This document shows positions 41,631 through 58,048 of a stretch of DNA of 64,000 nucleotides, in pieces (positions within the stretch are counted from its first letter, which is position 1; the number at the start of each line of letters is the position of its first letter). The translations under genes were made by a program, and so were the position numbers. This DNA is from an uncultured Acidobacteriota bacterium (GTDB lineage Bacteria > Acidobacteriota > Thermoanaerobaculia > Multivoradales > UBA5704): the NCBI GenBank assembly GCA_963732005.1, contig CAVSXT010000005.1:2057315-2121314 (forward strand), in the 5' to 3' direction. The notes beneath the pieces are model-generated. The model saw nothing but the letters and a program-made list of their open reading frames with translations, had not been told where the DNA came from and made no database searches.

Positions 41631-42515
41631 TCAGAAGCGAGCAGGGGGACAATGAGGGATCAGCGTGGTAGCGAGCGGCCCGCAATCAGTGACATCGGGC
41701 CACGGGAGCAACGTGCCAGGCGTCGTGCAGAGCCGGTGGAAGTGAAGGAAGTGCATCTCAGCCTGCGCGGGCCCCCCGGTTGAAGCACCGAGCGTCGAGA
41801 GCGGGATGTTGACGAGCCAGGCCTCGACATCGTTGCCTCCTGTCGTCAAGGTGATGTTGCCTTTGTTGCTCTGGAAGACCACCTGCTGGCCAGCCGAGAT
41901 CGTTATGGTCACCTTGACGACGTCGGCAATAGCCCTCCTGGTAACGACGCTGATGTTCTTGTTCATCATGTCGGCATAGTACCAACGGACGATCAAACCG
42001 CTGCCCGAAGCGAGCTGATCCGTCGACCAGGTGCCGTTCATGACCCACAATCGAGCCGAAGCGAGGCCGGCGGGGAAGGCGTTAGCCGTGACCTCCGGCA
42101 GCAGCGGCTGTCCAGGATTCGCGTCGGCCATGTTGCAGGTCCAGCCGAAATGGGTTTTGGGTTCGGCGGGAGACAGGCACGGTCCTACCACGGGAGCAGG
42201 CAAGGGAGTCGCTGCTGCACTTACCGGCGACACTCCGATGTCCTCCTCATCGAGAGGGAAGGCGATGAGAGCATCCTTGGCGAGATTCTGCGCCGGTGGA
42301 ATGTAGAGCCAGTTCTGGCGTGCAGTGGCAATCTGCCCCGGCGGCAGGGCTGGCAGGCACAGCATGGGGGTGTGGCGGTCCGGCGAGCCGATCGGAAGGG
42401 GTTGGCCGGAGGTGTCGTAATCGTAGGCATTGGGCAAGACGATGACGACGCTCTGGCCGGCGGCTGGCACGCACGCGCAGAGTCCGGTCACGTAGAGGTT
42501 CAGATTAAAGGTCAT
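41631..42515 (-). CDS. Hypothetical protein translationally coupled to the CHAT-domain protein (ATGA overlap)
   Basis: ATG (complement of 42513-42515) preceded by AAGGAGG at 7-nt spacing. The CHAT ORF stop overlaps this start. No family recognised (MTFNLNLYVTGLCACVPAAGQSVVIVLPNAY...). Confidence 0.6.
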   Translation of the reverse strand: MTFNLNLYVTGLCACVPAAGQSVVIVLPNAYDYDTSGQPLPIGSPDRHTPMLCLPALPPGQIATARQNWLYIPPAQNLAKDALIAFPLDEEDIGVSPVSAAATPLPAPVVGPCLSPAEPKTHFGWTCNMADANPGQPLLPEVTANAFPAGLASARLWVMNGTWSTDQLASGSGLIVRWYYADMMNKNISVVTRRAIADVVKVTITISAGQQVVFQSNKGNITLTTGGNDVEAWLVNIPLSTLGASTGGPAQAEMHFLHFHRLCTTPGTLLPWPDVTDCGPLATTLIPHCPPARF

Positions 42516-45500
42516 CGCGAGATCCTCCTTTCGGTGGTGGCCACCTGGAACAATTGAAATCCGCCCCACGCTGCGACCTCGTGCAATACGGGGTCGCGTC
42601 CGTGCAGCAGCTCAAGTTGGGTGTTGCGAAGAGCCGCGGCCGGGCCTTCGGCGGAGCGGAGGCGGCGATAGAAGCGTGCGAAAAACTGCTCGGCGGAGGC
42701 GTCGTCGACGCTTCCCAGCGCCGCCACTACGGCAGGTACGCCGGTGGCTAGAAAGGCCTCGACCAGGCCGCGCGAGCCTTCGGTATCTTGGCTGCCGGCG
42801 GCCCGGCAGGAGGAAAGCACCACGAGTCGCGTGCGGCCGGCCGCAAGGCGTCGAATGTCGCCGGCGCTCAAGGCCACCTTGTCCTCAGTGCTGGCCCGCG
42901 CGAGGGGCAGGAGAGAGAGGTCCGGCTGCTGGTCATCGGCGAGCACATGCGCGGCCAAGTGCACGATTGCAAATCGACCGAAACCGCGGGAGAACGCGGC
43001 GGCGGTTGCGTCCTGGCCGAGGCTGAGAACTGAGTTGGGGCGGTAGAGATCGGCGATCGCAGTGGCCTCTCGCCGGGCGCTGGGGAGCGGTTCCAGAAAG
43101 GAGAAGATCGCTGCGTCCAGACGAGGGTCTCCCAGCACGAAGGCGCTTGCGAGCGCCTGCCCCGAAGTTGCACCCCTCGGATCGGCCAATGCCGCGCTGG
43201 GTACGATCACCACTTCATGGTCGGCGACGAGCGGTTGTCCTGCCGGGCCGGCCAGTGCCGCGAAGGGGACGCGGCGCAGGCTCTTGTCAGGGGAGACGAG
43301 CAATGTGGTGACACCGAAAATGTCAGGAGCGATGGGATCGATCAAGACCGAAGAGAGCTTGCGCAGTGCCTCACGCGCGTCCTGCGGGCCAGAGTCCAGG
43401 AATTGCACCCAGGTTTCTAGGTCCGCGGCCGCGATGGACTCGATGTGGAAGCGAATGCGACCCTTGGTCATCACCCAGATTAGCAGCTGGTGAGGGAGCA
43501 CGGCGAACTCGACGAGAGCCCGTGCGCGATCCAGGCGATGCGTCAGGCCAGCGTCGGCCGCGGGGAGGTGGAGGGTGTCGCGCAGGGCGCGGGCGCGCGC
43601 TTCGTCGGCAATCGCAAAGAGGGCCGCCGGGGTCGCATGGGCCTCGATCGAGGTGGACATCCACTGGTCATAGACGGTGCGCGACTGAGAGAGGAAGGCA
43701 GTGCGAGACTCTCCAGCGTCGAGATGGACGCGTTGCGCCTCGACCTCCAGTAGAGCCTTGTGCAGCGACGCGGCTGCCGCAGCGCTATCGTGATTCGCGG
43801 TTTGGGCGAAGGCGAGCTCGGTCAGAAAATGGATCAGGCGCACCGCATCGTGCAAGGCTTGTGCGACGGCGGTTGCGCGCGCCAGCTCGGTAGCGGCTTT
43901 CACAGGAGCGGTTTTGAGGAGCAGATGCCCGCGCTCGGTCCAGATGTCCGCCAGCCATTGTCGGCGAGAGTCCGGATCGGCAAGCGCCGCGGCGGCGCCT
44001 TCAGCGGCCTTGAGATCCTGTAGAGCGCTCGCCTTACGACCGAGCGCCGCCCGTGCCCGTGCGCGGGTCAAGAGAGCGTACGCAGCTCCCGCCTGCCCGA
44101 GCGAGGGGCCCGATCGCTCAACGAGGCGGTCGGCGAACGCCAGCGCAGCGTGGGGAAGATTTGAGTCCTGCGCTGCCTGGCAAAGAGTCGCATAGGCGAC
44201 GATGAGGCGCCGCGGGTCGCCCGCCTGTACCGCAAGGCGACTACCCTGGTATAGCCAGGGCCATGCTGCAGGCCGTTGACCCAGGAGCCACAGGCTCTCG
44301 TAAAGGTTGAGAGCCACGCCCGCGCGCTCGGCCAGCGCACCCGAGTGCTGCGCAAGCACTTGGGCGTCATGGTAGTCGCGCAAGCAGTCGCCATTGCGTC
44401 CGGAATGGCTGAGGCTGGCACCTCGCAGCCAGAGCAGGCGCAGGCGGAGCGACGGGTATCGCCCGTGTAGGTCGCGATCGAGGGCCGTCAGGATGGTTAT
44501 GGCGCTGCCGAAATGGCCGCTCTGATAGGCGCAGAGGCCGCGGCCATACTCTGCCCACCAGGCGAGTGCCGGGACCGTGCGAGCCAGCTGCCGTGCAGCA
44601 GGCACAAGCAGCGCCTCCCCTCGTTTGCCCTCGTTGACCTGACAGGTTGTCAAGCCTGCCGCCACCTGGCTTACGCTGCGGGCAAGCGAAGGCAGGCGGC
44701 GAGGCTCTGCCTGGCGCAGGAGCGCCGTCGCCTCGACAAGCATGGAATCCGAGCAGCAGGCGGCTACACTCTGGCCGATACGCGTCATGAGGTCGAGGAG
44801 CCTGGCGGCAGCAGCGTCTTGGCCGCGCTGCACGGCTTCGGCCCAGCGGGGCAGCAGCCGCTCCTCGGCGAGCTTGCGCATCTCGCGCGGGAAGCTGGAG
44901 ATGAGGACGTTCGCTTCGGCGCAGGGCAATGGACAGGCCTCGAATCGCGCGAGTGCTGAGGGCCAGGCCGCCGTTGGATCCCCGGCGAGGCCTCGTGCGC
45001 CGACAGCGCCGTCGGTGAGCGAGGGTGACACCGCTTCCGGAGCAGCGAGGAAAGCGGCGTGCAGTGCGAGAGTCCAGTTGACTCTTGCCTCGGGCAGGAG
45101 AGGCGAGAGTTCGAGCGCTGTCTCGATTGCATCGAGCGCTGCAAGGCGCCCGGGGCCGTCCAACGCCGTGAGGTGAGTGAGATAAAACGCTCCGAGGTCA
45201 TTCAGGATGCACGCGTTGCGCGGACTCATGGCTGCGGCGTGTCTGAGAGCTGCCTCGGCCAGACGGTGATGTCCAAGTACCGCGCGCGCGACGCCAAGGT
45301 CGGCTAGCGCGTCCGCGCTTGGCGCTTGTGTCGCCCGCCGCTCGATGGCGTGTAGGGCGGCGATCTCGGAGCCGGTGGCAGGTGCCACGAGCGCGCCGGC
45401 GGCGAGCGGTTCAGCGAGCACCCCGCCAGCGAACCAAGGCCCTGAAGCCAGCGGACGAGCAAGGGCATCTCGGAGTCGTGCCCGCTCGGTGGAGCAGCTC

Positions 45501-45544
45501 GACCAGGGGGCGACAGTGACCTGCCTGCAGGCAGTGCCGGGCAC
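42512..45544 (-). CDS. CHAT-domain (caspase-like peptidase) protein with a long helical/TPR-like N-terminal region
   Basis: C-terminal CHAT domain IVHLAAHVL...LVVLSSCRAAGS...GLVEAFLATGVPAVVAALGSVDD with a His/Cys dyad. GTG start at the ORF track position; the true start is uncertain. Confidence 0.75.
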   Translation of the reverse strand: MPGTACRQVTVAPWSSCSTERARLRDALARPLASGPWFAGGVLAEPLAAGALVAPATGSEIAALHAIERRATQAPSADALADLGVARAVLGHHRLAEAALRHAAAMSPRNACILNDLGAFYLTHLTALDGPGRLAALDAIETALELSPLLPEARVNWTLALHAAFLAAPEAVSPSLTDGAVGARGLAGDPTAAWPSALARFEACPLPCAEANVLISSFPREMRKLAEERLLPRWAEAVQRGQDAAAARLLDLMTRIGQSVAACCSDSMLVEATALLRQAEPRRLPSLARSVSQVAAGLTTCQVNEGKRGEALLVPAARQLARTVPALAWWAEYGRGLCAYQSGHFGSAITILTALDRDLHGRYPSLRLRLLWLRGASLSHSGRNGDCLRDYHDAQVLAQHSGALAERAGVALNLYESLWLLGQRPAAWPWLYQGSRLAVQAGDPRRLIVAYATLCQAAQDSNLPHAALAFADRLVERSGPSLGQAGAAYALLTRARARAALGRKASALQDLKAAEGAAAALADPDSRRQWLADIWTERGHLLLKTAPVKAATELARATAVAQALHDAVRLIHFLTELAFAQTANHDSAAAAASLHKALLEVEAQRVHLDAGESRTAFLSQSRTVYDQWMSTSIEAHATPAALFAIADEARARALRDTLHLPAADAGLTHRLDRARALVEFAVLPHQLLIWVMTKGRIRFHIESIAAADLETWVQFLDSGPQDAREALRKLSSVLIDPIAPDIFGVTTLLVSPDKSLRRVPFAALAGPAGQPLVADHEVVIVPSAALADPRGATSGQALASAFVLGDPRLDAAIFSFLEPLPSARREATAIADLYRPNSVLSLGQDATAAAFSRGFGRFAIVHLAAHVLADDQQPDLSLLPLARASTEDKVALSAGDIRRLAAGRTRLVVLSSCRAAGSQDTEGSRGLVEAFLATGVPAVVAALGSVDDASAEQFFARFYRRLRSAEGPAAALRNTQLELLHGRDPVLHEVAAWGGFQLFQVATTERRISR

Positions 45545-45732: not shown

Positions 45733-47199
45733 CTACGGCTCCCTGACAACGAAAAAGAACGGGTCAATGGATGGCTGCACGGGGTAACCTGCGAGGTCCG
45801 TCAGGACATGCCGTTTCCAGTCGACGTTACGTAAATACCTGACCTTGACGTGCTTGGGGATCTTGGTGGGGTCAGGGTTGTTATAGGCGGAGAAGATGCC
45901 GTAGAAATCCTTCCCGACTGCGATCAGGTGGTCGTAATCGCCGAGCGTGTTGTTGCCTTGGCAGGAGCCTGGAACATCCTGCGTGTTCGCCAGCATTTCG
46001 TGGACGGCTGGCGCGGTAGCGAAGCGGTTGTCCGAGATCTCGATGTGGGTTTCCCAGTAGTGGCTACCAGGAGTGCCGGTAAGCTTCTGGTAGAGGAAGC
46101 CGACCTGCCCCAGGTTGTTGACCGCAAGCGCCGGATTGGTAGCAGCGACGACCTGCCGTAGATCATGACTCCATCGGGCACCGCCGTCATACGAGGAGCG
46201 GAGATGCAGAGTGAAGGTGTCAGCGGTGGTGCCGTCAGCCCAGGCGATGTATAAAATCTTGCTCTTGCCTCGCCGCGGATCGACGGCGAGCGCGAGGTTG
46301 CCGCGGACCCTCTGAGTGCCGAGATACAGGTTGGGGAGCGAGATAGCGACAGCGCAAGCCGCGCAGACGCCGGGGACACCTCCCGCGCTAATTGCCTGAT
46401 AGGGATTCGATGCAGCCCCCCAGGCGTCGTCTCTGACGACGATCACATCGGCGATCGCGGGAGGTATGCACGACCTCGGATGCAAGAAGGCCAGGTACAC
46501 AGTGCCGTTAGGATGAATCGCCGGACGAATGGAAGTGCCGTCCATGCACCCGAGGGTCCGGGCATCGAGAGATAGGGGGCCGACAAAGTTGTCCAGCGGC
46601 GGGGCTTTCGCCGCGTCGAGTGATTGCTCGACGGCCGCTGACCGGTAGTAAGGTGCATCGAGGTTGTTGTAACCTACGTAAACGCGGTCGACGCCAGGGT
46701 TCAGGGCGGTCGCCTCCTCGACGTCGGGCTGGTCGCCGTCTTGGATCTGGATGAGATCGGTCATCGCGCCAGGCGCCAGTAAGTTGACCTGGCGTAGCAG
46801 GTCGACCTTCTTGTTGTCGTTACGCAGGATGCCCGCGTAAAGAACGCCAGAGGTTTGGGAAAATCGCAAGGTGATGTCGCACATGGCGGACCCGCCCGGC
46901 AAGACGCCCGGCAAGACAACGTTGAGAAGCCAGGTCATGCCGCCGTCGGTCGAGACGAAGATCGGCGCCTCGCTCGATTCGAGAGGGTCGGGTGTTAGGG
47001 CAGATGCTGCCATCTGAAGAGGGTTTGCCGGGTTGACCGCGATGCTCGGCTCGGCGTCGCAGTTGGATTCTCCACTTAGAGACCGCGGGATGACGTCGAC
47101 CACCTGGATCGTCGGAAGATGAGCACAGTGCAGCCCGAGCAGACTCAGAAGGAGGAGCAACCAGTTCTGCGGTGCCGCGAGAGGCGAGGGCCTCGTCAT
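45733..47199 (-). CDS. Secreted BNR/Asp-box repeat protein (sialidase-fold-like)
   Basis: Signal peptide MTRPSPLAAPQNWLLLLLSLLGLHCAH and Asp-box motifs STDGGMTW and SYDGGARW. Confidence 0.65.
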   Translation of the reverse strand: MTRPSPLAAPQNWLLLLLSLLGLHCAHLPTIQVVDVIPRSLSGESNCDAEPSIAVNPANPLQMAASALTPDPLESSEAPIFVSTDGGMTWLLNVVLPGVLPGGSAMCDITLRFSQTSGVLYAGILRNDNKKVDLLRQVNLLAPGAMTDLIQIQDGDQPDVEEATALNPGVDRVYVGYNNLDAPYYRSAAVEQSLDAAKAPPLDNFVGPLSLDARTLGCMDGTSIRPAIHPNGTVYLAFLHPRSCIPPAIADVIVVRDDAWGAASNPYQAISAGGVPGVCAACAVAISLPNLYLGTQRVRGNLALAVDPRRGKSKILYIAWADGTTADTFTLHLRSSYDGGARWSHDLRQVVAATNPALAVNNLGQVGFLYQKLTGTPGSHYWETHIEISDNRFATAPAVHEMLANTQDVPGSCQGNNTLGDYDHLIAVGKDFYGIFSAYNNPDPTKIPKHVKVRYLRNVDWKRHVLTDLAGYPVQPSIDPFFFVVREP

Positions 47200-47250
47200 G
47201 ATGATCTCTCGTGTCACGAAAGTGCGTCGGGCAGAAGGCCGGCGTGTCGA

Positions 47251-48078
47251 TCAGTTGGTCTGAACCGCGATGATCGAGCGGATCTGCTCGAGCCGGTCCA
47301 GCGACAGGACATCGAGTTCGTCAAGGGCCGTCAGTCCGAGTAGGTGCAGCACCGGCATCCCTCTCTCCTTTTGGTCGCGCTGCAAGATCAGGATCTGCAC
47401 GGTTCCTGTGCGCAACTTGGGTGAGGCCCGCCACAGCAAGTCCGTGCTGTTGGGAAAGAGGACGTGCAAGGCGGACGGCGGCTCGCCCATAAGGACGGAG
47501 TGGACTTCGATCGTAGCCACCCACCAATCGGGGTCGTGCTCAGCGATGAGGGGCGGGGCGCCGTATGACGACGCGGGGCAGGTCGCCTTGACGGTACCTA
47601 CGACGATAAGCTGGGCGCGGGCGACGCGATCGCGGAGCTGGGCGGCGAACGCCCTGTTCTCGGCATCGCGGATCCGCGCTGGAAGGCTCGCGCCCTCCGT
47701 GGGGTTCATGTGGTATATCTCAACTACGGCCAAGGTGTCGCCGAAGAGCCAGCTGCGAGTCAAGAAGATCGCGGCATCTCCGATTTTGAGGAGCGAGTCG
47801 CCCTTGAGCCTCACGGTGACGCGTTTTCCTTTCAGGGAATAGTATGGCCCCGCCACTGGCCGATAAACTTGGTCTACTTGGATCACCGCTGTACGAGAGT
47901 CGACGGGGAAGGCCGGTTCGGTCGCAGTTCCAATTGCCTTCACGGTGCCTTGGAATATGAACTGCGACCGGCTCAGCAGCGCATCAAGACCTTGGGCGCC
48001 CGCGAGCGCGGAAAGAGAAAGAGCCAAGGTGCCGAGGAGCGAGAGCTGGCGTGCTGTTGAGCAGCGTGACACCGCCAT
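47251..48078 (-). CDS. Secreted hypothetical protein
   Basis: Internal ATG followed by the signal peptide MAVSRCSTARQLSLLGTLALSLSALAGAQG. No family recognised. Confidence 0.5.
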   Translation of the reverse strand: MAVSRCSTARQLSLLGTLALSLSALAGAQGLDALLSRSQFIFQGTVKAIGTATEPAFPVDSRTAVIQVDQVYRPVAGPYYSLKGKRVTVRLKGDSLLKIGDAAIFLTRSWLFGDTLAVVEIYHMNPTEGASLPARIRDAENRAFAAQLRDRVARAQLIVVGTVKATCPASSYGAPPLIAEHDPDWWVATIEVHSVLMGEPPSALHVLFPNSTDLLWRASPKLRTGTVQILILQRDQKERGMPVLHLLGLTALDELDVLSLDRLEQIRSIIAVQTN

Positions 48079-48398
48079 CGTTCGCCCCCGCGCTCGACTC
48101 CTGGATTGTGGGGCACCCATGCGAGTCTCCGATGGCGACGGCCGTGAGTGTCGCGGGGCCGGAGAGGGGCGGATGCTCAGTCTGCCCCGATGGTGGAAGA
48201 GTCTACGAGGCAGTCCGACTGAGGGCAAGCATTTTGATGCATTGCGATATCGACAAATGAGGTGGTTCTTACAGTCCGGATCGGCGGTGGAGCAGGAAGG
48301 CGAGGCTGCCATAGGCGCTCACTTCGATCGCTCAAGGAGGCGATCGATGAAGAAATGCGGCAGCGTGCACGGCGACGCCATTTGCGAGGAAAATAACC

Positions 48399-50729: not shown

Positions 50730-50843
50730 GGGCGCCAACGGTAGCCGCTGCTCGCTCCCGCCGCAAGTCCGGGGAAATGCTAAGGTGCCGGCGTACGCGG
50801 CGATTTCGCGGCGATCCTGCCGCTACCCGCGACGCAATGTTCC

Positions 50844-51773
50844 ATGAGGTCGACGCATGGAGGACGGCGAGCTGGTCGAGGTCGCTGCCGAAGGGCGCCC
50901 GGCTCGCCTGCCCGGCGAGGACCACAGCGGCCATGGCAGCCTGGTCAGCCCGGCTATTTCGCCGCGCTGAAGATCCCGCTGCTCGCCGGCCGGACCTTCA
51001 GCGAGCGCGACGACCGCAAGAGCCTGCCGGTGACCATCCTTGGCCGTTTCGCGGCGGCCCGCCTCTGGCCGGGACAGAATGCGGTCGGCCGGCGCGTCAC
51101 CTTCGGCCGGATCCCGAGCCGGCCGGACGCGCCATGGTGGACGGTGATTGGAGTGGTGGGCGACGTGCGCGACACCGACCTCGCCGTCGCGCCGGAGATG
51201 GAGGTCTACATCCCGCAGCTGCAGCTTCCGGTCGGGACCTCGACGCTGGTCGTGCGCGCCGCGGGCGACCCGCGGAGACTGGTCGGACCGATCCGCCGCG
51301 CCATCCGGAGGCTCGACGCGGACCTGCCGCTCGACAAGGTGCAGACCCTGGCGCGGGTCGTCTCGTCGGCGCTCGCCGGCCGGCGCGTCAGGACCTGCCT
51401 GCTGGGCATCCTTGCCGCCCTGGCGCTGGTGCTGGCGGTCGTCGGGGTCTACGCGCTGGTCAGCGGCTCGGTCGGCGAGCGGGTGCACGAGATCGGCATC
51501 CGCATGGCCCTGGGCGCCAGGGGCGACGAGGTGGTGCGAATGATCGTTCGGCAGGGGATGCGGCTGGTCGCCGCCGGCCTGCTGCTCGGGCTGGCGGGTG
51601 CCTATGCTTTCAGCCGGCTGCTGGCAGGCCAGGTCTACGAGGTCGCGGTCGCGGACCCGTGGACCTACCTCGGCGCGGCGGGGTTTCTCGCGGCCTTTGC
51701 CTTGCTCGCCAACTGGCTGCCGGCGCGGCGGGCGAGCCGCGTCGATGCGCTCGAGGCAATGCGCTGCGAGTGA
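50844..51773 (+). pseudogene. Truncated FtsX/MacB-type ABC permease: only the C-terminal roughly 270 aa; the N-terminal TM helix and most of the periplasmic domain are missing
   Basis: The protein-like sequence starts abruptly at ...PGYFAALKIPLLAGRTFSERDD and continues through the FtsX 3-TM bundle (VHEIGIRMALGARGDEVVRMIV...). The first 37 codons of the ORF are Arg/Gly junk. There is no upstream partner. Confidence 0.55.
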
Positions 51774-51785
51774 AGACAAGCAGCG

Positions 51786-51830
51786 CCGGCCCGCCCTCGA
51801 TCCCGGAGGCGGGAGCGGGAGCGGGCCGGC
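51786..51830. terminator. GC-rich hairpin (GCCGGCCCGC ... GCGGGCCGGC) between convergent transcription units; a possible bidirectional terminator
   Basis: 10-bp perfect inverted repeat read directly. No clear U-tract, so the call is tentative. Confidence 0.3.
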
Positions 51831-51905
51831 GGTCTGCCGTTGCAATGGGCCGTTGCCGCGTCTGCAGGCGGTTCCTTCAACGAAGCCGCTGCGGTACGGT
51901 GCGGG

Positions 51906-52052
51906 TCAGGGCTTGCAGGGTTCGGTGTGCCCCGAGGGCGTGAGGTTGCAGGAGCCCCCGGCGATCTCCGCCAGATCCAGGTCTCTCGCCGGGGTGATCA
52001 GATTCAGCACGGTCTCTTTCGACAGGACCAACTGCTTCTTCCTTTTCTTCAC
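51906..52052 (-). CDS. Small ORF (48 aa) resembling a RiPP/bacteriocin precursor peptide: Lys-rich N-terminus, double-glycine-type leader (DLDLAEIAGG) and a Cys/Ser/Thr/Pro-rich 15-aa core (SCNLTPSGHTEPCKP)
   Basis: Hand translation of the minus strand: GTG(52052) AAG AAA AGG ... TGA(51906-51908) gives MKKRKKQLVLSKETVLNLITPARDLDLAEIAGGSCNLTPSGHTEPCKP. AAAGGGG Shine-Dalgarno sequence 5 nt upstream. An AT-rich promoter-like stretch (TTCAAC...TATAGCATAAG) lies immediately upstream. Not in the ORF track (below 60 aa). Confidence 0.55.
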   Translation of the reverse strand: MKKRKKQLVLSKETVLNLITPARDLDLAEIAGGSCNLTPSGHTEPCKP

Positions 52053-52114
52053 GTTCGCCCCTTTCTTATGCTATACGACTGTTGAACTAGCCTCTTATAC
52101 ATCGTTTCCATGGT

Positions 52115-53482
52115 TCAGGACAAGGGGATCGGCAAGGTGGAGATCAGTAGCGCCCGATCCCAGGCCGGATCGACGTGAGAGACAGCCGCGAGGAGAGCCA
52201 GTCCGATGCCCGTGGCGCCCCTGGCGAACCCGGGCTCGTCCAACCACTCGCCACGATAGGTGATGCGAAAGCCGGCAATGCCGACGCCAGGCGTGCGCTG
52301 GGCGAGCGCCCGGTCGAGCCAGCGGCGCGCGGCCTCGGCGAAGGCCGTCTCGCCGGTCGCCTGATAGAGCCGGTTGAAGACGTGGCCGATACCGGCCGGC
52401 CCGTCGGAGAGCCCGGCGCCGGCGCCGCCGGCCATGCCGGGATGGCCGGGATGGCGGGCGGCCGCGGCGAGCGCCACGCGCCGGCCGGCGGCTTCCCAGG
52501 CCGGCTCGCCGGCGCCACGCGCCGCCAGCAGCAGGCTGGCGGCGATGCCGAGATCCCCGACCCGCCAGGCGAGTGGGCTACCCCGCGCCGCGGCGCCGGG
52601 GAAGTGGAACTGAGGAAAGCGGTAGCCGCTCTCGGGAGGCTGCTCGCGCGCCAGCAACCAGGAGACCGTGGCCGCGAGCAGCGGCCGCGCCGCGGGGGCG
52701 GCGACACCGGCCTGACAGGCGGCACCCAGCAGCGCGATGACGCCCGCGATCCCCTGGCCCATGCCGAGGACATAGGCGCCCTGCGGGAGCTCGCCGCGGA
52801 ATGGAGGAGGCAGGTCGCCCACCGGGCTGAAGAAGGCGGCACCTTCCGGATGGCGCTCGGCGCGGCGCGCCAGCTGGGTGACCACCGCCTCCAAGCATTG
52901 CGCCGCGTTAGGCCGCGGCAGCCGCTCGAGCGCGTAGACGCCCAGCCCCACCAGGCCGGTGAAGAGGTCGTAAGCGCCCTCCCAGGACGAGCGCGAAAGG
53001 CCACGCAGGAGGACCTCGTCCACCTCGCGGTTGCCGTCCTCCTCGTCCGCGAACAGTCGCCCAGCCAGGTGGGCCGCGGCCCAGGCGATCCCCGGAAATC
53101 CGAGGTACAGGCTGGTGCCCAGGCGCAGGCCGGCGGCGGCCTCGGTGGCCTGGTCGAGCAGGTCGATGGCGACGTCGGCATGGGCATCGCCGGCGCCGTG
53201 AAGCGCAAGGTAGGCATGGAGGAGGCACTGCCCCACGCGGCCGCTGCTCAGCGCGTTCTCCCAGATCGGAACGCCCTCGGGCCGGAGGTTGCGGGGAAAG
53301 CAGCTGACGCCGCGGGCGGTGACGGCGGCGATGTCGCCGGCCGCCGCCAGCGCTCGGGTCGCGGCCTCGCCGGCCAGGAGGGGGCTCCAGGGGAGGCTCA
53401 CGCCCGGATCATGTGGGACCCGGCGGAGCGGGTCAATCGTCGCCGCCAGCGCCCTGCTCTCCCCGCGACGGGGGCGGGGCAC
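52115..53482 (-). CDS. LanC-like (lanthionine synthetase C-like, alpha/alpha-toroid with GxxG repeats) protein lacking the canonical Zn-ligand Cys/His motifs
   Basis: Repeated GxxG-containing helices (SLYLGFPGIAWAAAHL, DLFTGLVGLGVYALE, GMGQGIAGVIALLGAA, LSDGPAGIGHVFNRLYQATGE). Where LanC has SWCHG and GLCHG, this protein has GMGQG and LSDGPAG. Start uncertain: GTG at 53482 chosen; the ATG at 53638 would overlap the divergent gene by 110 nt. Confidence 0.55.
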   Translation of the reverse strand: MPRPRRGESRALAATIDPLRRVPHDPGVSLPWSPLLAGEAATRALAAAGDIAAVTARGVSCFPRNLRPEGVPIWENALSSGRVGQCLLHAYLALHGAGDAHADVAIDLLDQATEAAAGLRLGTSLYLGFPGIAWAAAHLAGRLFADEEDGNREVDEVLLRGLSRSSWEGAYDLFTGLVGLGVYALERLPRPNAAQCLEAVVTQLARRAERHPEGAAFFSPVGDLPPPFRGELPQGAYVLGMGQGIAGVIALLGAACQAGVAAPAARPLLAATVSWLLAREQPPESGYRFPQFHFPGAAARGSPLAWRVGDLGIAASLLLAARGAGEPAWEAAGRRVALAAAARHPGHPGMAGGAGAGLSDGPAGIGHVFNRLYQATGETAFAEAARRWLDRALAQRTPGVGIAGFRITYRGEWLDEPGFARGATGIGLALLAAVSHVDPAWDRALLISTLPIPLS

Positions 53483-53527
53483 TCGGGGCAGCAAGTAGAC
53501 TAGAAGCTCCGACTGCGAGGCCAGACC

Positions 53528-54595
53528 ATGGATGAGAAACGGCTGGATTGGAGCACTTCGTACGTGGTTCCCGCGAGCCTTCGCTTCCGGCTGACGCCTG
53601 CCGGAAAGCTCCGCGCGGATGCCGAGTGGGCTCCCCATGTGATGACCGAGCAGGCCGAGGTGGCAGCCGATCAGGTCGAGCTGCTGCTCGGTTTCGCGAG
53701 CCCCCTGGTGGCCGAGGCGGCGTTCGCGCGCGCGGCGGAGACCTGGGACCTCGACCGCGAGACCTACGGCCTGCTGCTCGAGACCTGGATCGCCCGCGGC
53801 CTGCTGCGGCCGGTCGACGCCGGCGCCTACGCGACCACGCGCCTGGCGCTGTTCGCCGAGGCGGTCGCGGAAAAGGCCGCGACTGCATCTCCGGTCTTCC
53901 CGCTGCGCTCGCACTTCGCCATGCAGCAGCCGGTGCTGTTCGTGCCCGGGCTGGGCACCCGCGAGATCCACGACGGCCGGCGCTTTCCCTGGGTCGCCGT
54001 CCTCGAGACCGCCTTCCCGCTCATCCAGGCCGAATTCATCGCGCTTCTCGCCAGCTCCGACTTCTTGCGGGTCAACCCCGACTTCACCCATCAGGGAGAA
54101 TGGGCGGCGGCCTACCTCTGGGCTCACGGCGAGAGAATCGACGCGATCTGCCGCCAGTGTCCGGAAACCACCCGCCTGTTGACCTCGATCCCCGGAGTCT
54201 CGCAATTCGGCCTGGCGATGTTCTCGGCCCTCGCCCCGCACACCCGGATCGCGCCGCACCATGGCGTCACCAACGCGATCCTGCGCTGCCAGCTGCCGCT
54301 AAGGGTGCCGCCCGGCTGCAAGCTGAAGGTCGGAGATCACGAGCTCGAGCAGCAGGAAGGGCGCTGCATCGTCTTCGACGACTCCTTCCTGCATTCGGCC
54401 TGGAACGATAGCGACCAGGCGCGCTTCGTCCTGCTGTTCGACTTCTTCCACCCCGACCTGACCGGCGACGAGATCGAGTATCTGGCGCGGCTGCCGGCGA
54501 AGCAGGCCATGGCCAAGCACCACCTCGCCCAGGCGGTCGGTGGCCCGAAGGCGGAGTGGGCGAAGCAAGGGCCCGCCGGCGGCCCTGCCGGGTGA
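53528..54595 (+). CDS. Aspartyl/asparaginyl beta-hydroxylase family (Fe(II)/2-oxoglutarate oxygenase) protein with a roughly 150-aa N-terminal extension
   Basis: C-terminal KLKVGDHELEQQEGRCIVFDDSFLHSAWNDSDQARFVLLFDFFHP matches Asp/Asn beta-hydroxylase (LpxO/AspH). The N-terminal 150 aa are of unknown function. Confidence 0.75.
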   Translation: MDEKRLDWSTSYVVPASLRFRLTPAGKLRADAEWAPHVMTEQAEVAADQVELLLGFASPLVAEAAFARAAETWDLDRETYGLLLETWIARGLLRPVDAGAYATTRLALFAEAVAEKAATASPVFPLRSHFAMQQPVLFVPGLGTREIHDGRRFPWVAVLETAFPLIQAEFIALLASSDFLRVNPDFTHQGEWAAAYLWAHGERIDAICRQCPETTRLLTSIPGVSQFGLAMFSALAPHTRIAPHHGVTNAILRCQLPLRVPPGCKLKVGDHELEQQEGRCIVFDDSFLHSAWNDSDQARFVLLFDFFHPDLTGDEIEYLARLPAKQAMAKHHLAQAVGGPKAEWAKQGPAGGPAG

Positions 54596-54695
54596 CGGCG
54601 CCCTGAGCAGACCTGAGCAGCCGTCGTCCGGTGCCGCGGCCCCTCCTGCGGCCGCTTCGCCGGACATCTCCTGCAACGGAACGGGACAGGAAGCA

Positions 54696-56282
54696 ATGGA
54701 CAAAGCCACGAACAGATGGATTGCGCGCTCGGCCCTGCCCGCCGTCGTGGCGGCGCCAACCCGAGAGGCCGGCGGGGGGTGGCCGAGGGCCACCGCGGCG
54801 CGGCCGTGGGTCTGGGGGGCCATTGCCTGCTGGGCCGCCGTGGTCGGCTTTCTCGGCTGGCGCTTTCGGGGCCAGGCGCTCGACGACTTCTTCATCACCT
54901 ATCGCTATAGCCTGAACCTCGCCGAAGGACGGGGCTTCGTGTTCAACGCCGGCGAGCGGGTGTTCGCGCTCACCAACCCGGGGCTGGCGCTGGTGCTGGC
55001 CCTGGGCCGGACGCTGACCGGTCTGGAAGTGCCGCTGCTGGCTTCGGCGCTCTCGGGCCTGGCGCTGCTGGCGGTGGCGGTCCTACTGCTGCTCGAGGCG
55101 CGGGCGCTGGGACGGGCGCCGGAAGCGCTGCTCGGCGGCACGCTGCTGGTGACCTCCTCCTTCCTCTGGGTGCTGCAGGGCGGCGAGGGGATGGTGATGC
55201 TCGCCCTGCTGCTGCTGGCCGCGCGGTGGGGAGCCGACCGGCCGGTCCTGGCCGGCCTGCTGGCGGGTTTTGCCGTCTGGTGCCGCCCGGAGGCCGCGAT
55301 CGGCGCCGGCCTGCTGGCGATCCTCTTGTGGCGGGAGCGCAAGCGGTTGCCGTGGCGCCTGGCTGCCACCGCGGCTGCCGTCGTCCTGCTCGGCGTGCTG
55401 CTCGCCTGGCTCTATTTCGGCAACGCCATCCCGAACTCCCTGGCCGCGAAGCGCGCCCTGGCGGCGGGCAGCTCGGGGCTGGGCTTCTGGCCGCAGTCGG
55501 CGGAGCTGGCACGGCGTCATGCGGGGCAACTATGGCCGGCGGTCGTCGGGCTCGGACTGCTGGGGCAGTGGCCCCTGCTGCGCTCCGGGGGCCGCTGCCT
55601 GCGGCTGCTCTCCCTGCTGGCGCTGAGCCTCACGGTGATCTATCCGCTCCTCGGCGTGCCCTATGCGCCGTGGTACGTGCTGCCGATGGCCGTGGCGATG
55701 CTGTACGGGCTCGGTTTCCTGATCGGGTTGCCGGCGCGGCTGAAGGCCACGGCCACCCCGCTTGCCGGCCGGGCGCTCGCCACGGCCGCCGCCGCGCTGG
55801 CCCTCGCGGCGGTGGTGATCTCGCTGGCGCCGGCCGAGGCCCGGCGGCTGCGCCGGTTCACCTGGCCGCCCTACATGCGGGCCTACCAGCGGGCGGCGGA
55901 GTGGCTGAACGCCAACACGGCGCCGGCTGCGGCGGTGTCGTATTTCGAGGTCGGGGCGCTCGGCTATTTCAGCGATCGGACGGTGATCGACATGGTCGGC
56001 ATTGTGACGCCCGAGCTCTTGCCTTACGTGCGGCGTCGCGATTTCGCCGGCGCCTTCCTGGCCCGTCCCGGTGCCTTCGCTCTCGTGGATCCGGACCAGG
56101 GTCCCTTCATGCCGGCCGATAGGCCCTGGTTCAAACGCGCCTACCAGCCCGTGGCCACGTTCGGCGAGCAGGGGAGGCTGGTCCTGTATGAGCGCCGCGT
56201 CGACGTCGGCCTGCCGCGGGCACCGTCGCCCGGCGGCGATCCGGACGCGGGCGGCGGCAGCGGCAGCAACGCAACGCGCTGA
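54696..56282 (+). CDS. GT-C fold membrane glycosyltransferase-like protein (ArnT/PMT-superfamily-like), paralog A
   Basis: About 11 TM helices with a first-loop motif DDFFITYRYSLNL. ATG at 54696. The 3' end overlaps convergent paralog B by about 142 nt. Confidence 0.55.
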   Translation: MDKATNRWIARSALPAVVAAPTREAGGGWPRATAARPWVWGAIACWAAVVGFLGWRFRGQALDDFFITYRYSLNLAEGRGFVFNAGERVFALTNPGLALVLALGRTLTGLEVPLLASALSGLALLAVAVLLLLEARALGRAPEALLGGTLLVTSSFLWVLQGGEGMVMLALLLLAARWGADRPVLAGLLAGFAVWCRPEAAIGAGLLAILLWRERKRLPWRLAATAAAVVLLGVLLAWLYFGNAIPNSLAAKRALAAGSSGLGFWPQSAELARRHAGQLWPAVVGLGLLGQWPLLRSGGRCLRLLSLLALSLTVIYPLLGVPYAPWYVLPMAVAMLYGLGFLIGLPARLKATATPLAGRALATAAAALALAAVVISLAPAEARRLRRFTWPPYMRAYQRAAEWLNANTAPAAAVSYFEVGALGYFSDRTVIDMVGIVTPELLPYVRRRDFAGAFLARPGAFALVDPDQGPFMPADRPWFKRAYQPVATFGEQGRLVLYERRVDVGLPRAPSPGGDPDAGGGSGSNATR

Positions 56283-58048
56283 GGCACGCGCTGCCGCGCG
56301 CTCAGCGGTCGCCGGACCGTGGAAGCGGCAGGCCGCAGCCAGTCACGGCTCTCGCAGGCGCGGATCCGGTCGTCGGTGAGCGGTACCGGGCGCTCGATCA
56401 CCCGCACCTGCTTGCCGCCGCGCAGGTGGACGTTGGGCAGGAAGCATTCCACGTAGCCGGGCGGCGGCTGCCGTTCGTGCGCCATCAGGACGCGCCCGCC
56501 GGCCGCCAGCGGCGCGCGCGCGATCACCCGATCGTTGAGGCCCAGGGTGTCCACCACGGCGACGTGCGGCAGGACCCAGCCGGCGAGGCCGACGCCGCTC
56601 GTCGCCATCACCGGCCGGCCGCTCCAGGAGATGCGGGCGCCGTCCTGCCGCGACGGAAACCGCTCGGTCAGCCAGATCAGGCAGACCGCGTGCTCCTGCC
56701 GGCGCAGGCCGATGGCGTGGCCGATCAGCGTCGCCTGCCAGCCATCCCAGGCCGCGACGATGGGCCGCACCGGCGGCGGGAAGTCCCCGGCCAGCGGCCA
56801 GCGCAGGAAGGAGGTCTGCTCGCGGCTCAGGAGATCCCTGGTGCGCCACCAGTACAGCCATGGCAGCGGCCAGGAGGCGAGCAGGAAGACGCTCAGCGTC
56901 GCGACGGCGGCGGCGCCACCGAGACCGGCGGCGTCGACCAGCGCCAGCGCCGAGAGCAAGAGCAACGGGATCAGGTAGCTAAAGACGCGGTACTCGAAGT
57001 GATCGCCGCCGACGATGAGTGTGTAGTAGGCGACGTGGGTCACCACCACCGCCGGCGCGAGCACTCTCGCCAGCCGCGCCGCCACGGGCCGGGTGCTCGG
57101 GACGCGCCGCGGCGAGAGCAGGCCGCGGCAAGCCGCCGCCACGGCCAGCGCCAGCCAGACCCAGGTGCCGTTCTCGACCACGAAGCTGGCGAGGTAGCGC
57201 CAGCCCATCTCGGGCCACGGCGCCGGCACCTTGGCGTAATAGGTGTTTGGCAGCCAGGAGCCGTAGGTCCAGCGGCGCCACAGCAGGTGAGCGGCGATGG
57301 CCAGCAGCGGGCTCGCCGCGAGGACCGTCGCGCGCACCGGCCTGGCGTGCGACGGGGCGGCGGCGAGCAGGAGCAGCGCCGTGGCCGGCACCGTCAACAG
57401 TCCATCCGGCCGCGCCAGGCAGGAGAGCGCGGCGGCGGTCGACAGCCGCAGGCCCCAGGCCAGGCCGGCCTCGTCGCCGCCCACGAGTCCGAGGGCTTCG
57501 AGCAGCCACCAGGTGAAGCAGAGGTTCCAGAGCTGGGTCTCGAGCCCGGAGCTCAACCAGGTCAGGAAGGTGGTGTTGGTGCAGATACCCAGCAGGACGA
57601 GGGCCGCCAGCAGGGTCCGCCGCCGGTCCAGCCGGGGTGAGAGCCGCAGGCGTCCGCCGGCGCGCCAGACGAGCGCCAGCGTCGCGAGCCCGCAGAGCAG
57701 GCTCAGCCAGCAGGAGGTGCGCGGCGGATCGATCCCCGTCAACCGCCAGGCGGCGCCGAGCAGCAGCGCCCACAGGAGGCTGGTGTAGCCCTCGACCGGC
57801 AGGAACGGCGGCGGGTTCCAGATCAGGCCGTATCCCGCCAGCAGGTTGGAGACATAGCGGAACGTGATGTAGGCGTCGTCGGTCTGGAACCAGAGCAGCT
57901 TCCAGCCGGCGACGGCGACCAGCAGCGCCGCGCCGAGCACCCAGTAGCGCGCGGCTCCGGGGGCCGGCCCGCGACGCCGGCCCGGCAGGTCCCCTGGCGA
58001 GCTCGCTTGCTCCGGTTCCAGGGTTGCCGCCGTCGGGGTCGGGCTCAT
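56141..58048 (-). CDS. GT-C fold membrane glycosyltransferase-like protein, paralog B, translationally coupled to cydB
   Basis: First-loop motif TDDAYITFRYVSNL. Polytopic. Its ATG (complement of 58046-58048) overlaps the cydB stop (ATGA). Confidence 0.6.
   Translation of the reverse strand: MSPTPTAATLEPEQASSPGDLPGRRRGPAPGAARYWVLGAALLVAVAGWKLLWFQTDDAYITFRYVSNLLAGYGLIWNPPPFLPVEGYTSLLWALLLGAAWRLTGIDPPRTSCWLSLLCGLATLALVWRAGGRLRLSPRLDRRRTLLAALVLLGICTNTTFLTWLSSGLETQLWNLCFTWWLLEALGLVGGDEAGLAWGLRLSTAAALSCLARPDGLLTVPATALLLLAAAPSHARPVRATVLAASPLLAIAAHLLWRRWTYGSWLPNTYYAKVPAPWPEMGWRYLASFVVENGTWVWLALAVAAACRGLLSPRRVPSTRPVAARLARVLAPAVVVTHVAYYTLIVGGDHFEYRVFSYLIPLLLLSALALVDAAGLGGAAAVATLSVFLLASWPLPWLYWWRTRDLLSREQTSFLRWPLAGDFPPPVRPIVAAWDGWQATLIGHAIGLRRQEHAVCLIWLTERFPSRQDGARISWSGRPVMATSGVGLAGWVLPHVAVVDTLGLNDRVIARAPLAAGGRVLMAHERQPPPGYVECFLPNVHLRGGKQVRVIERPVPLTDDRIRACESRDWLRPAASTVRRPLSARQRVPQRVALLPLPPPASGSPPGDGARGRPTSTRRSYRTSLPCSPNVATGW

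Follow-up and report, generated by a model that had tools for sequence, protein, structure and literature searches.

A conserved short precursor peptide beside a zinc-less LanC-like protein in an uncultured acidobacterium: probably a new variant of lanthipeptide-type peptide

What is a LanC-like protein for when no dehydratase is encoded near it and the open reading frame (ORF) that follows it is only 48 codons long? The question is raised by 64,000 nucleotides of DNA (the window, for short) from contig CAVSXT010000005.1 of an uncultured Acidobacteriota bacterium of the Thermoanaerobaculia, in which an unannotated minus-strand ORF stands directly 3' of a LanC-like gene. A preliminary description took this ORF for the precursor of a ribosomally made, post-translationally modified peptide (RiPP) or bacteriocin tied to its LanC-like neighbour. 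Our analysis agrees, on the grounds of conservation, purifying selection, relatives with L1a-type lanthipeptide leaders (21 of 26) and C39 exporters in 13 related loci. The cassette consists of three genes in about 2.7 kb: an AspH-type hydroxylase with an N-terminal domain resembling a RiPP recognition element (RRE), divergent from the LanC-like gene, which is then followed by the precursor. The features on which the argument rests are the following.

51906..52052, minus strand: lanA-type precursor peptide gene, 48 amino acids plus stop codon, encoding VKKRKKQLVLSKETVLNLITPARDLDLAEIAGGSCNLTPSGHTEPCKP
Residues 1-33 of the peptide: leader, KKRxKxLxLSKETVxNL...AGG
Residues 34-48 of the peptide: core, SCNLTPSGHTEPCKP
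52058..52064, minus strand: ribosome-binding site AAAGGGG, 5 nt 5' of the GTG start
52053..52114, minus strand: AT-rich spacer of 62 nt from the LanC-like stop to the peptide start, GC 45-50%
52115..53401, minus strand: stand-alone LanC-like protein, 428 amino acids from the GTG at 53401 (PF05147, 3.4e-21), stop codon at 52115-52117
53408..53436, minus strand: candidate sigma-70-like promoter TTGACC-17-CATGAT, whose 3' end lies 6 nt from the GTG start of the LanC-like gene (53401)
53528..53869, plus strand: RRE-like domain (winged-helix, PqqD-type), hydroxylase residues 1-114
53993..54472, plus strand: Asp/Asn beta-hydroxylase domain (AspH-type 2-oxoglutarate/Fe oxygenase), hydroxylase residues 156-315 (PF05118, 5.3e-44)

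That the short ORF is a real gene we regard as close to certain. The GTG at 52052 is its sole possible start, because an in-frame stop codon sits 8 codons upstream, and the homologues begin at the matching position (some with ATG). A protein search with the window peptide returned six homologues (P0001-P0006) of 48-57 amino acids at E-values of 1.5e-23 to 2.1e-12. Their contigs and a genome scan place homologues directly 3' of a LanC-like gene in locus L001, a Thermoanaerobaculia metagenome-assembled genome whose LanC is 94% identical to that of the window, in L007-L011 (LanC 73% identical) and in L012; conservation beside a LanC-like gene, which had been put forward as a check (six homologues, E 1e-12 to 1e-23), is therefore what we observe. 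The peptide gene is tandemly duplicated in L007-L012, with two paralogues in each of these loci. The distance from the LanC-like gene to the peptide is 60-140 nt in the window, L001, L007-L011, L014-L016 and the L012 fragment, and the earlier placing of the LanC-like gene 62 nt upstream of the window peptide is exact. Moreover, an AAAGGAG or AAAGGGG box stands at equal spacing 5' of every homologous copy (seven upstream regions aligned), so that the GTG start with a ribosome-binding site at fitting distance, first pointed out from the window only, proves conserved.

The second check that had been proposed, the balance of synonymous and nonsynonymous change, gives an equally clear result. Across diverged pairs (dS 0.66-1.07) the ratio of nonsynonymous to synonymous rates (dN/dS) is 0.10-0.23 for the full ORF and 0-0.13 for the core; that is, the core is nearly invariant although synonymous change is saturated. 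The precursor is under purifying selection, and it and the LanC-like gene are passed on together as a unit. The family core follows the pattern S-C-[NTQ]-[LI]-[TS]-P-S-G-[HNP]-[TS]-E-P-(H)-C, in which positions 1 (Ser), 5 ([TS]), 7 (Ser) and 10 ([TS]) are kept as hydroxyl residues with T/S exchanges only. In the window the core has 15 residues with 2 Cys, 2 Ser, 2 Thr, 3 Pro and 1 Asn, just as had been counted; residues N3-L4-T5 form an N-X-T sequon, and Asn3 is the sole Asx of the core.

The leader had been read as a double-glycine leader of the kind handled by C39 peptidase-domain exporters. G32-G33 is indeed preceded by I30 (-4), L27 (-7), A22 (-12) and I19 (-15), the hydrophobic pattern of such leaders, a GG or GA ending is kept throughout the precursor family, and the C39 idea is right for the family. 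The model of the L1a class of lanthipeptide leaders (NF038153, lant_leader_L1a) matches the window peptide weakly (E 0.07; 13.3 bits, where the cutoff is 22) and 21 of its 26 aligned relatives (best 1.9e-9); NF038158 is matched by 10 of the 26. The bacteriocin_sig model TIGR01847, which had been suggested for recognising the leader, finds nothing in the window peptide at E<=10 and a single one of the 26 relatives (E 0.018). Judged by sequence, then, the window leader appears to be a divergent member of the L1a family of class I lanthipeptide leaders, with a double-glycine end, and the peptide as a whole is very probably a RiPP-type precursor.

The LanC-like protein, whose start codon was set with the help of homologue N-termini, is the most unusual partner of this precursor. 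An AlphaFold (AF2) model (pLDDT 89) has its best Foldseek matches among class I cyclases, namely MadC (E 1e-14, TM 0.80) and NisC (TM 0.73). Yet where these have a His/Cys/Cys-His (HCCH) signature, which is intact in 86 of 99 LanC relatives, the window protein has Q209, R273, S325 and D326 (numbering of a 421-residue query) and carries Pro at the position of NisC Arg280; in the alignment to MadC (8BYK), GMGQG, AWRVG and LSDG stand where MadC has SHG, WCYG and CHG. The replacement QR[SG]D (Gln/Arg/Ser-or-Gly/Asp) marks a clade made up of the window, L001, L007-L011 and P0008, a zinc-less LanC 76% identical to the window protein. The LanC of L002 and L013 (70% identical) has an intermediate site, QCCH, and L017 (EWAL) and L087 (HPCA) are independent losses of the active site. 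Sequence comparison gives no fewer than three losses of the zinc site (QR[SG]D, EWAL, HPCA) with selection retained, and in the window lineage the loss is recent and clade-specific.

Pseudogene decay is rejected, as the LanC-like gene has a dN/dS of 0.2-0.35, a value also found in canonical pairs. We therefore describe the protein, from its sequence and model, as a conserved pseudo-cyclase, with a predicted LanC fold and no zinc or acid-base residues. Its best partial NCBIfam match is the C-terminus of LanKC (1.1e-13, 50.6 bits against a cutoff of 575), but the LanKC architecture of lyase, kinase and zinc-less cyclase is not found in this 428-residue protein, which has the LanC domain alone. 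On sequence it nests inside a class I-type family of stand-alone, mostly HCCH, LanC proteins.

How far the association of LanC and precursor extends can be seen from the relatives of the LanC-like protein (more than 500, chiefly in Thermoanaerobaculia), around which 96 loci were collected. Many of these LanC genes are adjoined by small ORFs whose leader opens with Lys/Arg-rich sequence, goes on to an LxLxKETLxxL box and closes with GG. Canonical class I clusters, with LanB, LanC and a C39-ABC transporter, hold relatives with the same leader type and a LanC 36-47% identical to the window's. LanB (PF04738+PF14028) was found in 15 of the relatives' loci by clustering and in 29 by tblastn, Thermoanaerobaculia included (L005), and a C39-peptidase ABC exporter (PF03412) lies near the same leader type in 12-13 related LanB-type loci. 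Loci whose LanC is at least 48% identical to the window's cluster in a neighbour-joining tree (L002-L004, L007-L011, L013-L020 and L087). Neither LanB nor LanT was found in 16 loci of this orphan lineage, searched to 6-10 kb on both sides as far as the contig permits, and its sole constant unit is a LanC with one to three precursors. The cores differ as well, with a median of 19 residues and 2-3 Cys in the orphan lineage against 31 residues and 7 Cys in LanB-linked loci.

The window itself conforms to the orphan type. Pfam searches of its roughly 45 ORFs revealed no LanB, LanM, LanKC, kinase/lyase or C39 transporter, and tblastn with LanB and LanT from related loci gave only noise (two LanBs, E>=0.01), so that the initial statement that dehydratase and C39 transporter are missing from the window stands. 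The non-canonical route of modification to which that statement led likewise stands as a prediction, and a dehydratase encoded elsewhere in the genome is possible.

Two side observations concern the wider LanC family. L006, from a member of the Nitriliruptoraceae (Actinomycetota), combines a LanC 41% identical to the window's with a LanB, and its precursors (22-450, 2248-2496) have short cores (PYVTDPTCGPECRPR) after very acidic leaders that end in DVKGG or DIAGG. The LanC family thus occurs in more than one phylum, and with another type of leader. Amidohydro_1 proteins are encoded near orphan LanC genes in L014 (8670-10004) and L097 (3694-5142). The end of the amidohydrolase gene and the start of LanC overlap in L014, which may be a coincidence or point to a further partner.

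The third gene of the cassette, at 53528-54595 (plus strand), encodes a hydroxylase of 355 residues and lies head-to-head with the LanC-like gene. It had been described as back-to-back with the small ORF, which needs correcting: it diverges from the LanC-like gene about 1.5 kb away from the ORF, whose tail-to-tail neighbour is a truncated permease gene. Its catalytic part aligns with human AspH (5APA, E 1.2e-25), PHHG, FDDSFLHSAW and ARFVLLFD falling on the Fe and 2-oxoglutarate (2OG) motifs, and the His of PHxG, the His of FDDSFxH and a downstream Arg are retained; we take these residues to be the Fe and 2OG ligands. The best NCBIfam matches, far under the cutoff, are the lipid hydroxylases OlsC/LpxO. 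An unrelated lipid hydroxylase, for which these matches and the absence of the gene from L007-L011 could be quoted, is rejected on the RRE and gene-context results that follow.

The N-terminal domain of the hydroxylase (about 140 residues) has no Pfam match at E<=10, the PqqD model PF05402 included, and sequence and profile searches of the PDB gave no significant match; its RRE nature was resolved by structure prediction only. The model has the three-stranded sheet and three-helix winged-helix fold, and the values tabulated for it are:

TigE, 10.7
MibB, 10.3 (18% identity)
MadB, 10.0
TbtB, 9.6
NisB, 9.5
MccB, 8.4
TbiB1, 8.4
TfuB1, 8.0
PbtF, 8.0
PqqD, 7.9

As modelled, then, the domain is a RiPP recognition element, and its nearest counterparts are in LanB dehydratases. 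It is rare, occurring in just 18 of 1.8 billion representative proteins, where it is fused to AspH or methyltransferase domains. In particular, the N-terminus of a PRMT/PrmA-like methyltransferase of L054 shares 30% identity with it (E 7e-9), and an RRE-like domain with such a methyltransferase is encoded directly 3' of LanC in L054 (9139-10371) and L055 (1410-1673). The precursor core adjacent to the RRE-methyltransferase of L054 contains Arg, which suggests peptide arginine methylation.

A search with the whole hydroxylase gave 160 matches, about 95 of them near-full-length and most from Thermoanaerobaculia, the weakest carrying the AspH domain only. Several homologues lie in other RiPP-like surroundings. 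The one in L097 adjoins a sulfotransferase, an L1a-type precursor and three canonical LanCs; that of L098 occurs with a radical SAM (rSAM) enzyme, a 65-residue ORF and a glycosyltransferase; and L099 has two AspH copies with three rSAM genes, PqqD, a carbamoyltransferase and a 59-residue ORF. A further homologue, 68% identical (L100), has no recognisable RiPP context. Overall, genes with the RRE-like domain have precursors nearby in the window, L001, L054 and L097, and candidate small ORFs in L098 and L099. The divergent position of the AspH gene is kept in L001. On these results we count the hydroxylase among the tailoring enzymes of RiPP pathways, and the link between peptide and Asp/Asn hydroxylase that was first drawn from proximity is borne out by the RRE-like domain and by the homologues in other RiPP clusters. 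That it acts on the window precursor in particular seems, from sequence and context, somewhat more probable than the opposite.

L097 (8001-14117) deserves a remark of its own. There the RRE-AspH gene is translationally coupled to the sulfotransferase (PF00685), and the two together converge on the precursor (...AAGATTFTAPCTMCTGRCNTPCCP) and the three LanC genes in tandem; there is no LanB within 8 kb. Sulfation in this locus could be an alternative activation of Ser/Thr before elimination.

Expression of the cassette can be outlined from signals in the sequence. A sigma-70 consensus scan made one match only, at 53436..53408 (1 found against 0.0 expected in shuffles), and no promoter was found in the 62-nt spacer, non-consensus acidobacterial promoters being outside the reach of the scan. 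An AT-rich, promoter-like stretch had been noted upstream of the small ORF. The AT-richness is real, as GC dips to 45-50% over 51990-52139 against a window mean of 71.8%, and is partly made up of Lys-rich leader codons and the ribosome-binding site; the idea of a promoter of the peptide's own in the spacer is dropped, the consensus scan having no match there. The simplest reading is that the LanC-like gene and the precursor would be co-transcribed, because the only promoter match precedes the LanC-like GTG and none lies in the spacer. The LanC-like start has no Shine-Dalgarno sequence; the peptide downstream of it has a strong ribosome-binding site. This suggests a leaderless lanC-lanA mRNA, because the -10 box of the presumed promoter ends 6 nt before the GTG and no Shine-Dalgarno sequence is present.

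The explanation that we prefer, and hold tentatively at a little under an even chance, is a reduced three-gene RiPP cassette whose product is a 15-mer cleaved after the double glycine, bridged between Cys2 and Cys13 and probably beta-hydroxylated at Asn3. The gene-level statements in it come from the comparisons above, and all of its chemistry is what we infer. Specifically, the LanC-like gene and the precursor would be co-transcribed from the promoter at 53436-53408, and the precursor would be translated efficiently off its own strong ribosome-binding site. The KKRxKxLxLSKETVxNL leader would dock on the RRE of the hydroxylase, which would then beta-hydroxylate Asn3. The LanC-like protein, presumed catalytically dead, would serve as a peptide-binding scaffold or chaperone and not as a zinc-dependent thia-Michael cyclase. 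Cys2 and Cys13 would close a macrocycle of 12 residues, most simply as a disulfide, much like the Cys-bridged loops on which human AspH depends, and a C39-type exporter encoded elsewhere would cut after Gly33 and release the 15-mer of about 1.5 kDa. As for the part of this account that has no lanthionine in the product, we find the case evenly balanced.

Several findings weigh against this explanation. Class III cyclase domains function without zinc ligands, and loss of the triad is no proof of lost cyclase activity. The conserved hydroxyls Ser1, [TS]5, Ser7 and [TS]10 fit dehydration by a LanB encoded elsewhere equally well. The window encodes neither an exporter nor a protease for the GG site. 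In addition, the AspH gene is missing within 1-10 kb of L007-L011 (with at least 8 kb upstream covered in L007-L009), and Asn3 is not invariant, since T or Q takes its place in L008-L011 and also in the second paralogue; because these loci are without AspH and core position 3 varies as N/T/Q, the hydroxylase is an accessory of the sublineage of the window and L001 only. Finally, the AspH homologue of L100 has neither LanC nor recognisable precursor nearby.

The main rival is a genuine class I lanthipeptide whose LanB and exporter are encoded in trans, which we think possible and clearly less probable than the preferred explanation. That LanB would bind the conserved L1a-type leader and dehydrate the Ser/Thr residues of the core. 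Cys2 and Cys13 would then lie in (methyl)lanthionine rings, formed spontaneously or with zinc-independent help from the LanC-like protein, in the manner of class III cyclase domains, and the AspH-type enzyme would add a beta-hydroxyl, like CinX in cinnamycin. The leader appears to belong to the family used by LanB-dependent clusters, Thermoanaerobaculia do carry LanB, the hydroxyl residues of the core are conserved, and the HCCH signature that most LanCs of the orphan lineage keep intact is sensible only with dehydro residues available. Moreover, zinc-less LanC-fold cyclases are known (PMC7268733), and a cyclase-centred survey includes a few 'B-Unk' cyclases (PMC11251773). On the other side stand the 16 orphan loci and the 64-kb window without a LanB, in a kind of pathway whose genes are normally clustered, and the replacement of all five catalytic positions in the window protein, the zinc triad and beyond. 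The geometry of the core also speaks against it, as Cys2 comes right after Ser1 and before the other Ser/Thr residues, and one ring would need the unusual direction in which Cys precedes the dehydro residue.

Should the peptide not be modified at all, or at most carry a disulfide, it would be a double-glycine-leader peptide of the class II bacteriocin-like or signalling kind; the LanC-like protein would be a relic co-opted for immunity, chaperoning or regulation, and the substrate of the RRE-AspH enzyme would be unlinked to it. This we consider unlikely. The missing catalytic residues would be accounted for, as would the sister clade that has the LanC-like gene and two peptides with no AspH, the L100 homologue outside a RiPP context, and a leader with the -4/-7/-12/-15 hydrophobic pattern of substrates of peptidase-containing transporters (PCATs). 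It fits poorly with a LanC-like gene and a peptide that stay adjacent under purifying selection over dS of about 0.5-1, with an RRE-AspH gene kept divergent in L001 and found again in four other RiPP-like loci, and with an RRE model closest to those of LanBs, which bind such leaders.

Somewhat more improbable still is that the orphan LanC and precursor lineage of Thermoanaerobaculia and Holophagae forms a LanB-independent RiPP class that could build its crosslinks through a novel kind of activation. In it, LanC-fold proteins, zinc-containing or not, would cooperate with tailoring enzymes fused to an RRE (AspH, PRMT-like methyltransferase) and, in L097, with the AspH-coupled sulfotransferase. 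For example, Asn beta-hydroxylation or Ser/Thr sulfation, elimination and Cys addition would yield a Cys-to-Asx or lanthionine-type thioether, with neither glutamyl-tRNA nor phosphorylation. The reading of the ORF as chance, or as an untranslated 3' UTR of the LanC-like gene, which its shortness and the lack of a consensus promoter in the spacer might have favoured, is rejected as scarcely credible in view of homologues at E-values as low as 1e-23, a conserved ribosome-binding site and start, dN/dS of 0.1-0.2 with a core almost unchanged under saturated synonymous change, and tandem duplication in L007-L012.

The surroundings of the cassette add two features downstream of the precursor.

51784..51831, minus strand: GC-rich hairpin with arms CGCCGGCCCGC / GCGGGCCGGCG, 75 nt past the peptide stop
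50844..51773, plus strand: truncated ADOP-family (MacB/FtsX-like) permease remnant, convergent with the peptide gene

The RNA fold of 51775-51910 has -70.3 kcal/mol (z -3.0 against shuffles), and the hairpin arms are kept in L001 with one G-U change. No T-run follows the hairpin and the terminator scan made no call; its likely role is to end or stabilise transcripts, both of the peptide gene and of the permease gene convergent with it. Rfam gave no match at E<=1 within 51400-53700, and no known RNA accounts for the spacer or the hairpin. The permease remnant covers only positions 520-803 of TIGR03434. Compared with L001 (4404-5919), the window (50787-50860) has 73 nt in place of 1515 nt, a 1.44-kb deletion that costs about 500 N-terminal residues of an 806-residue protein. 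Since it is truncated in the window, this permease is unlikely as a dedicated exporter, and the remnant is probably not a working part of the cassette. An intact ADOP permease stands at the equivalent position in L001, L002, L012 and L013. Beyond it lie further L1a-type precursors, MDKKMAGKKVVLNRETLRQLSTDRLEAVVGGATGRSLCYTCGSVCHTNCHGC in L012 (3373-3531, minus strand) and VKKRDKRL...AGGSCTVTGGSTAGGTRHVCCLPDP in L002 and L013, and ADOP permeases recur beside L1a-type peptides, L098 and L099 included.

On the hydroxylase side, two large polytopic membrane proteins (54540-56282, plus strand, which comes after the AspH gene on the same strand, and 56141-58048, minus strand) have in common an N-terminal motif of the (D)D(A/F)(Y/F)ITFRY/ITYRY type. 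They have no Pfam match, match weakly the LA_3751 putative glycosyltransferase family of NCBIfam, and have no homologues in any related locus. Hexosylation of the core, which had also been envisaged, finds no conserved glycosyltransferase; glycosylation by neighbouring enzymes is set aside, as there is no conserved partner and the GT4 of L007-L011 is part of a polysaccharide cluster. Further away, the window encodes a 1010-residue TPR-CHAT protein (42512-45544, minus strand) and then two secreted proteins that belong to no family (45733-48312, minus strand). CHAT proteins occur in L014 too, 4-8 kb from its LanC; all of these, in the window and in L014, probably have no relation to the cassette.

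Set beside known systems, the locus most resembles class I lanthipeptides, among which the pinensin-type clusters of Bacteroidota also have L1a-type leaders. The K-rich N-terminus, the LxLxKETxxxL box, the GG end, the Ser/Thr/Cys core and the stand-alone LanC fold are all shared. Unlike these systems, the window has no LanB or LanT in 64 kb, its LanC-like protein is without His/Arg/Cys/Cys-His, its core of 15 residues and 2 Cys contrasts with the medians of the LanB-linked relatives, and a tailoring enzyme of AspH type is unreported for lanthipeptides in searchable papers. In short, we see a locus that descends from, and works like, class I lanthipeptide systems and lacks two of their defining traits, a LanB in the cluster and the zinc-site residues of LanC. 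The sole resemblance to class III LanKC is a LanC fold without zinc ligands, and the window protein is not fused to lyase or kinase domains. Closer at first sight are stand-alone LanC-like genes of Bacteroidales, a puzzle to earlier genome mining, which occur without LanB and C-x-CH motifs beside carbohydrate-active enzymes or rSAM genes and were taken to have, in all probability, nothing to do with RiPPs (PMC10352776); the window gene differs in being directly followed by a conserved, selected precursor.

For the hydroxylase the nearest comparison is human AspH, which hydroxylates Asx within Cys-bridged macrocycles of EGF domains. Both are 2OG/Fe oxygenases with the same catalytic motifs and, by our reading of the window, a Cys-bridged loop as target; the window enzyme has a RiPP recognition element where AspH has a TPR domain. 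In cinnamycin and duramycin, Asp hydroxylation is the work of CinX/DurX, and CinX comes from a different 2OG family. Known RRE (PqqD-like) fusion enzymes differ in that the window domain escapes all Pfam models, PqqD included, and is very rare. Our literature search met no description of an orphan LanC and precursor lineage or of an RRE-AspH fusion; most subscription journals lay outside its coverage, and a prior description is possible.

The window product is probably a new variant of lanthipeptide-type peptide, and its meaning lies in what has been passed over. Mining rules demand a dehydratase beside the cyclase, stand-alone LanC genes are consequently discarded, as a rule, as non-RiPP, and such short precursors are rarely annotated. 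Here, through a whole lineage, a selected precursor stays joined to a LanC-fold protein with no dehydratase nearby. The loss of the zinc site without loss of selection separates the peptide binding of the LanC fold from zinc catalysis, and an unannotated RRE family, as modelled, would bring AspH-type hydroxylases and PRMT-like methyltransferases to L1a-type leaders. Ultimately, the small size of the cassette makes its chemistry directly testable, be it a hydroxylated disulfide loop, a lanthipeptide made with a LanB in trans, or a new crosslink.

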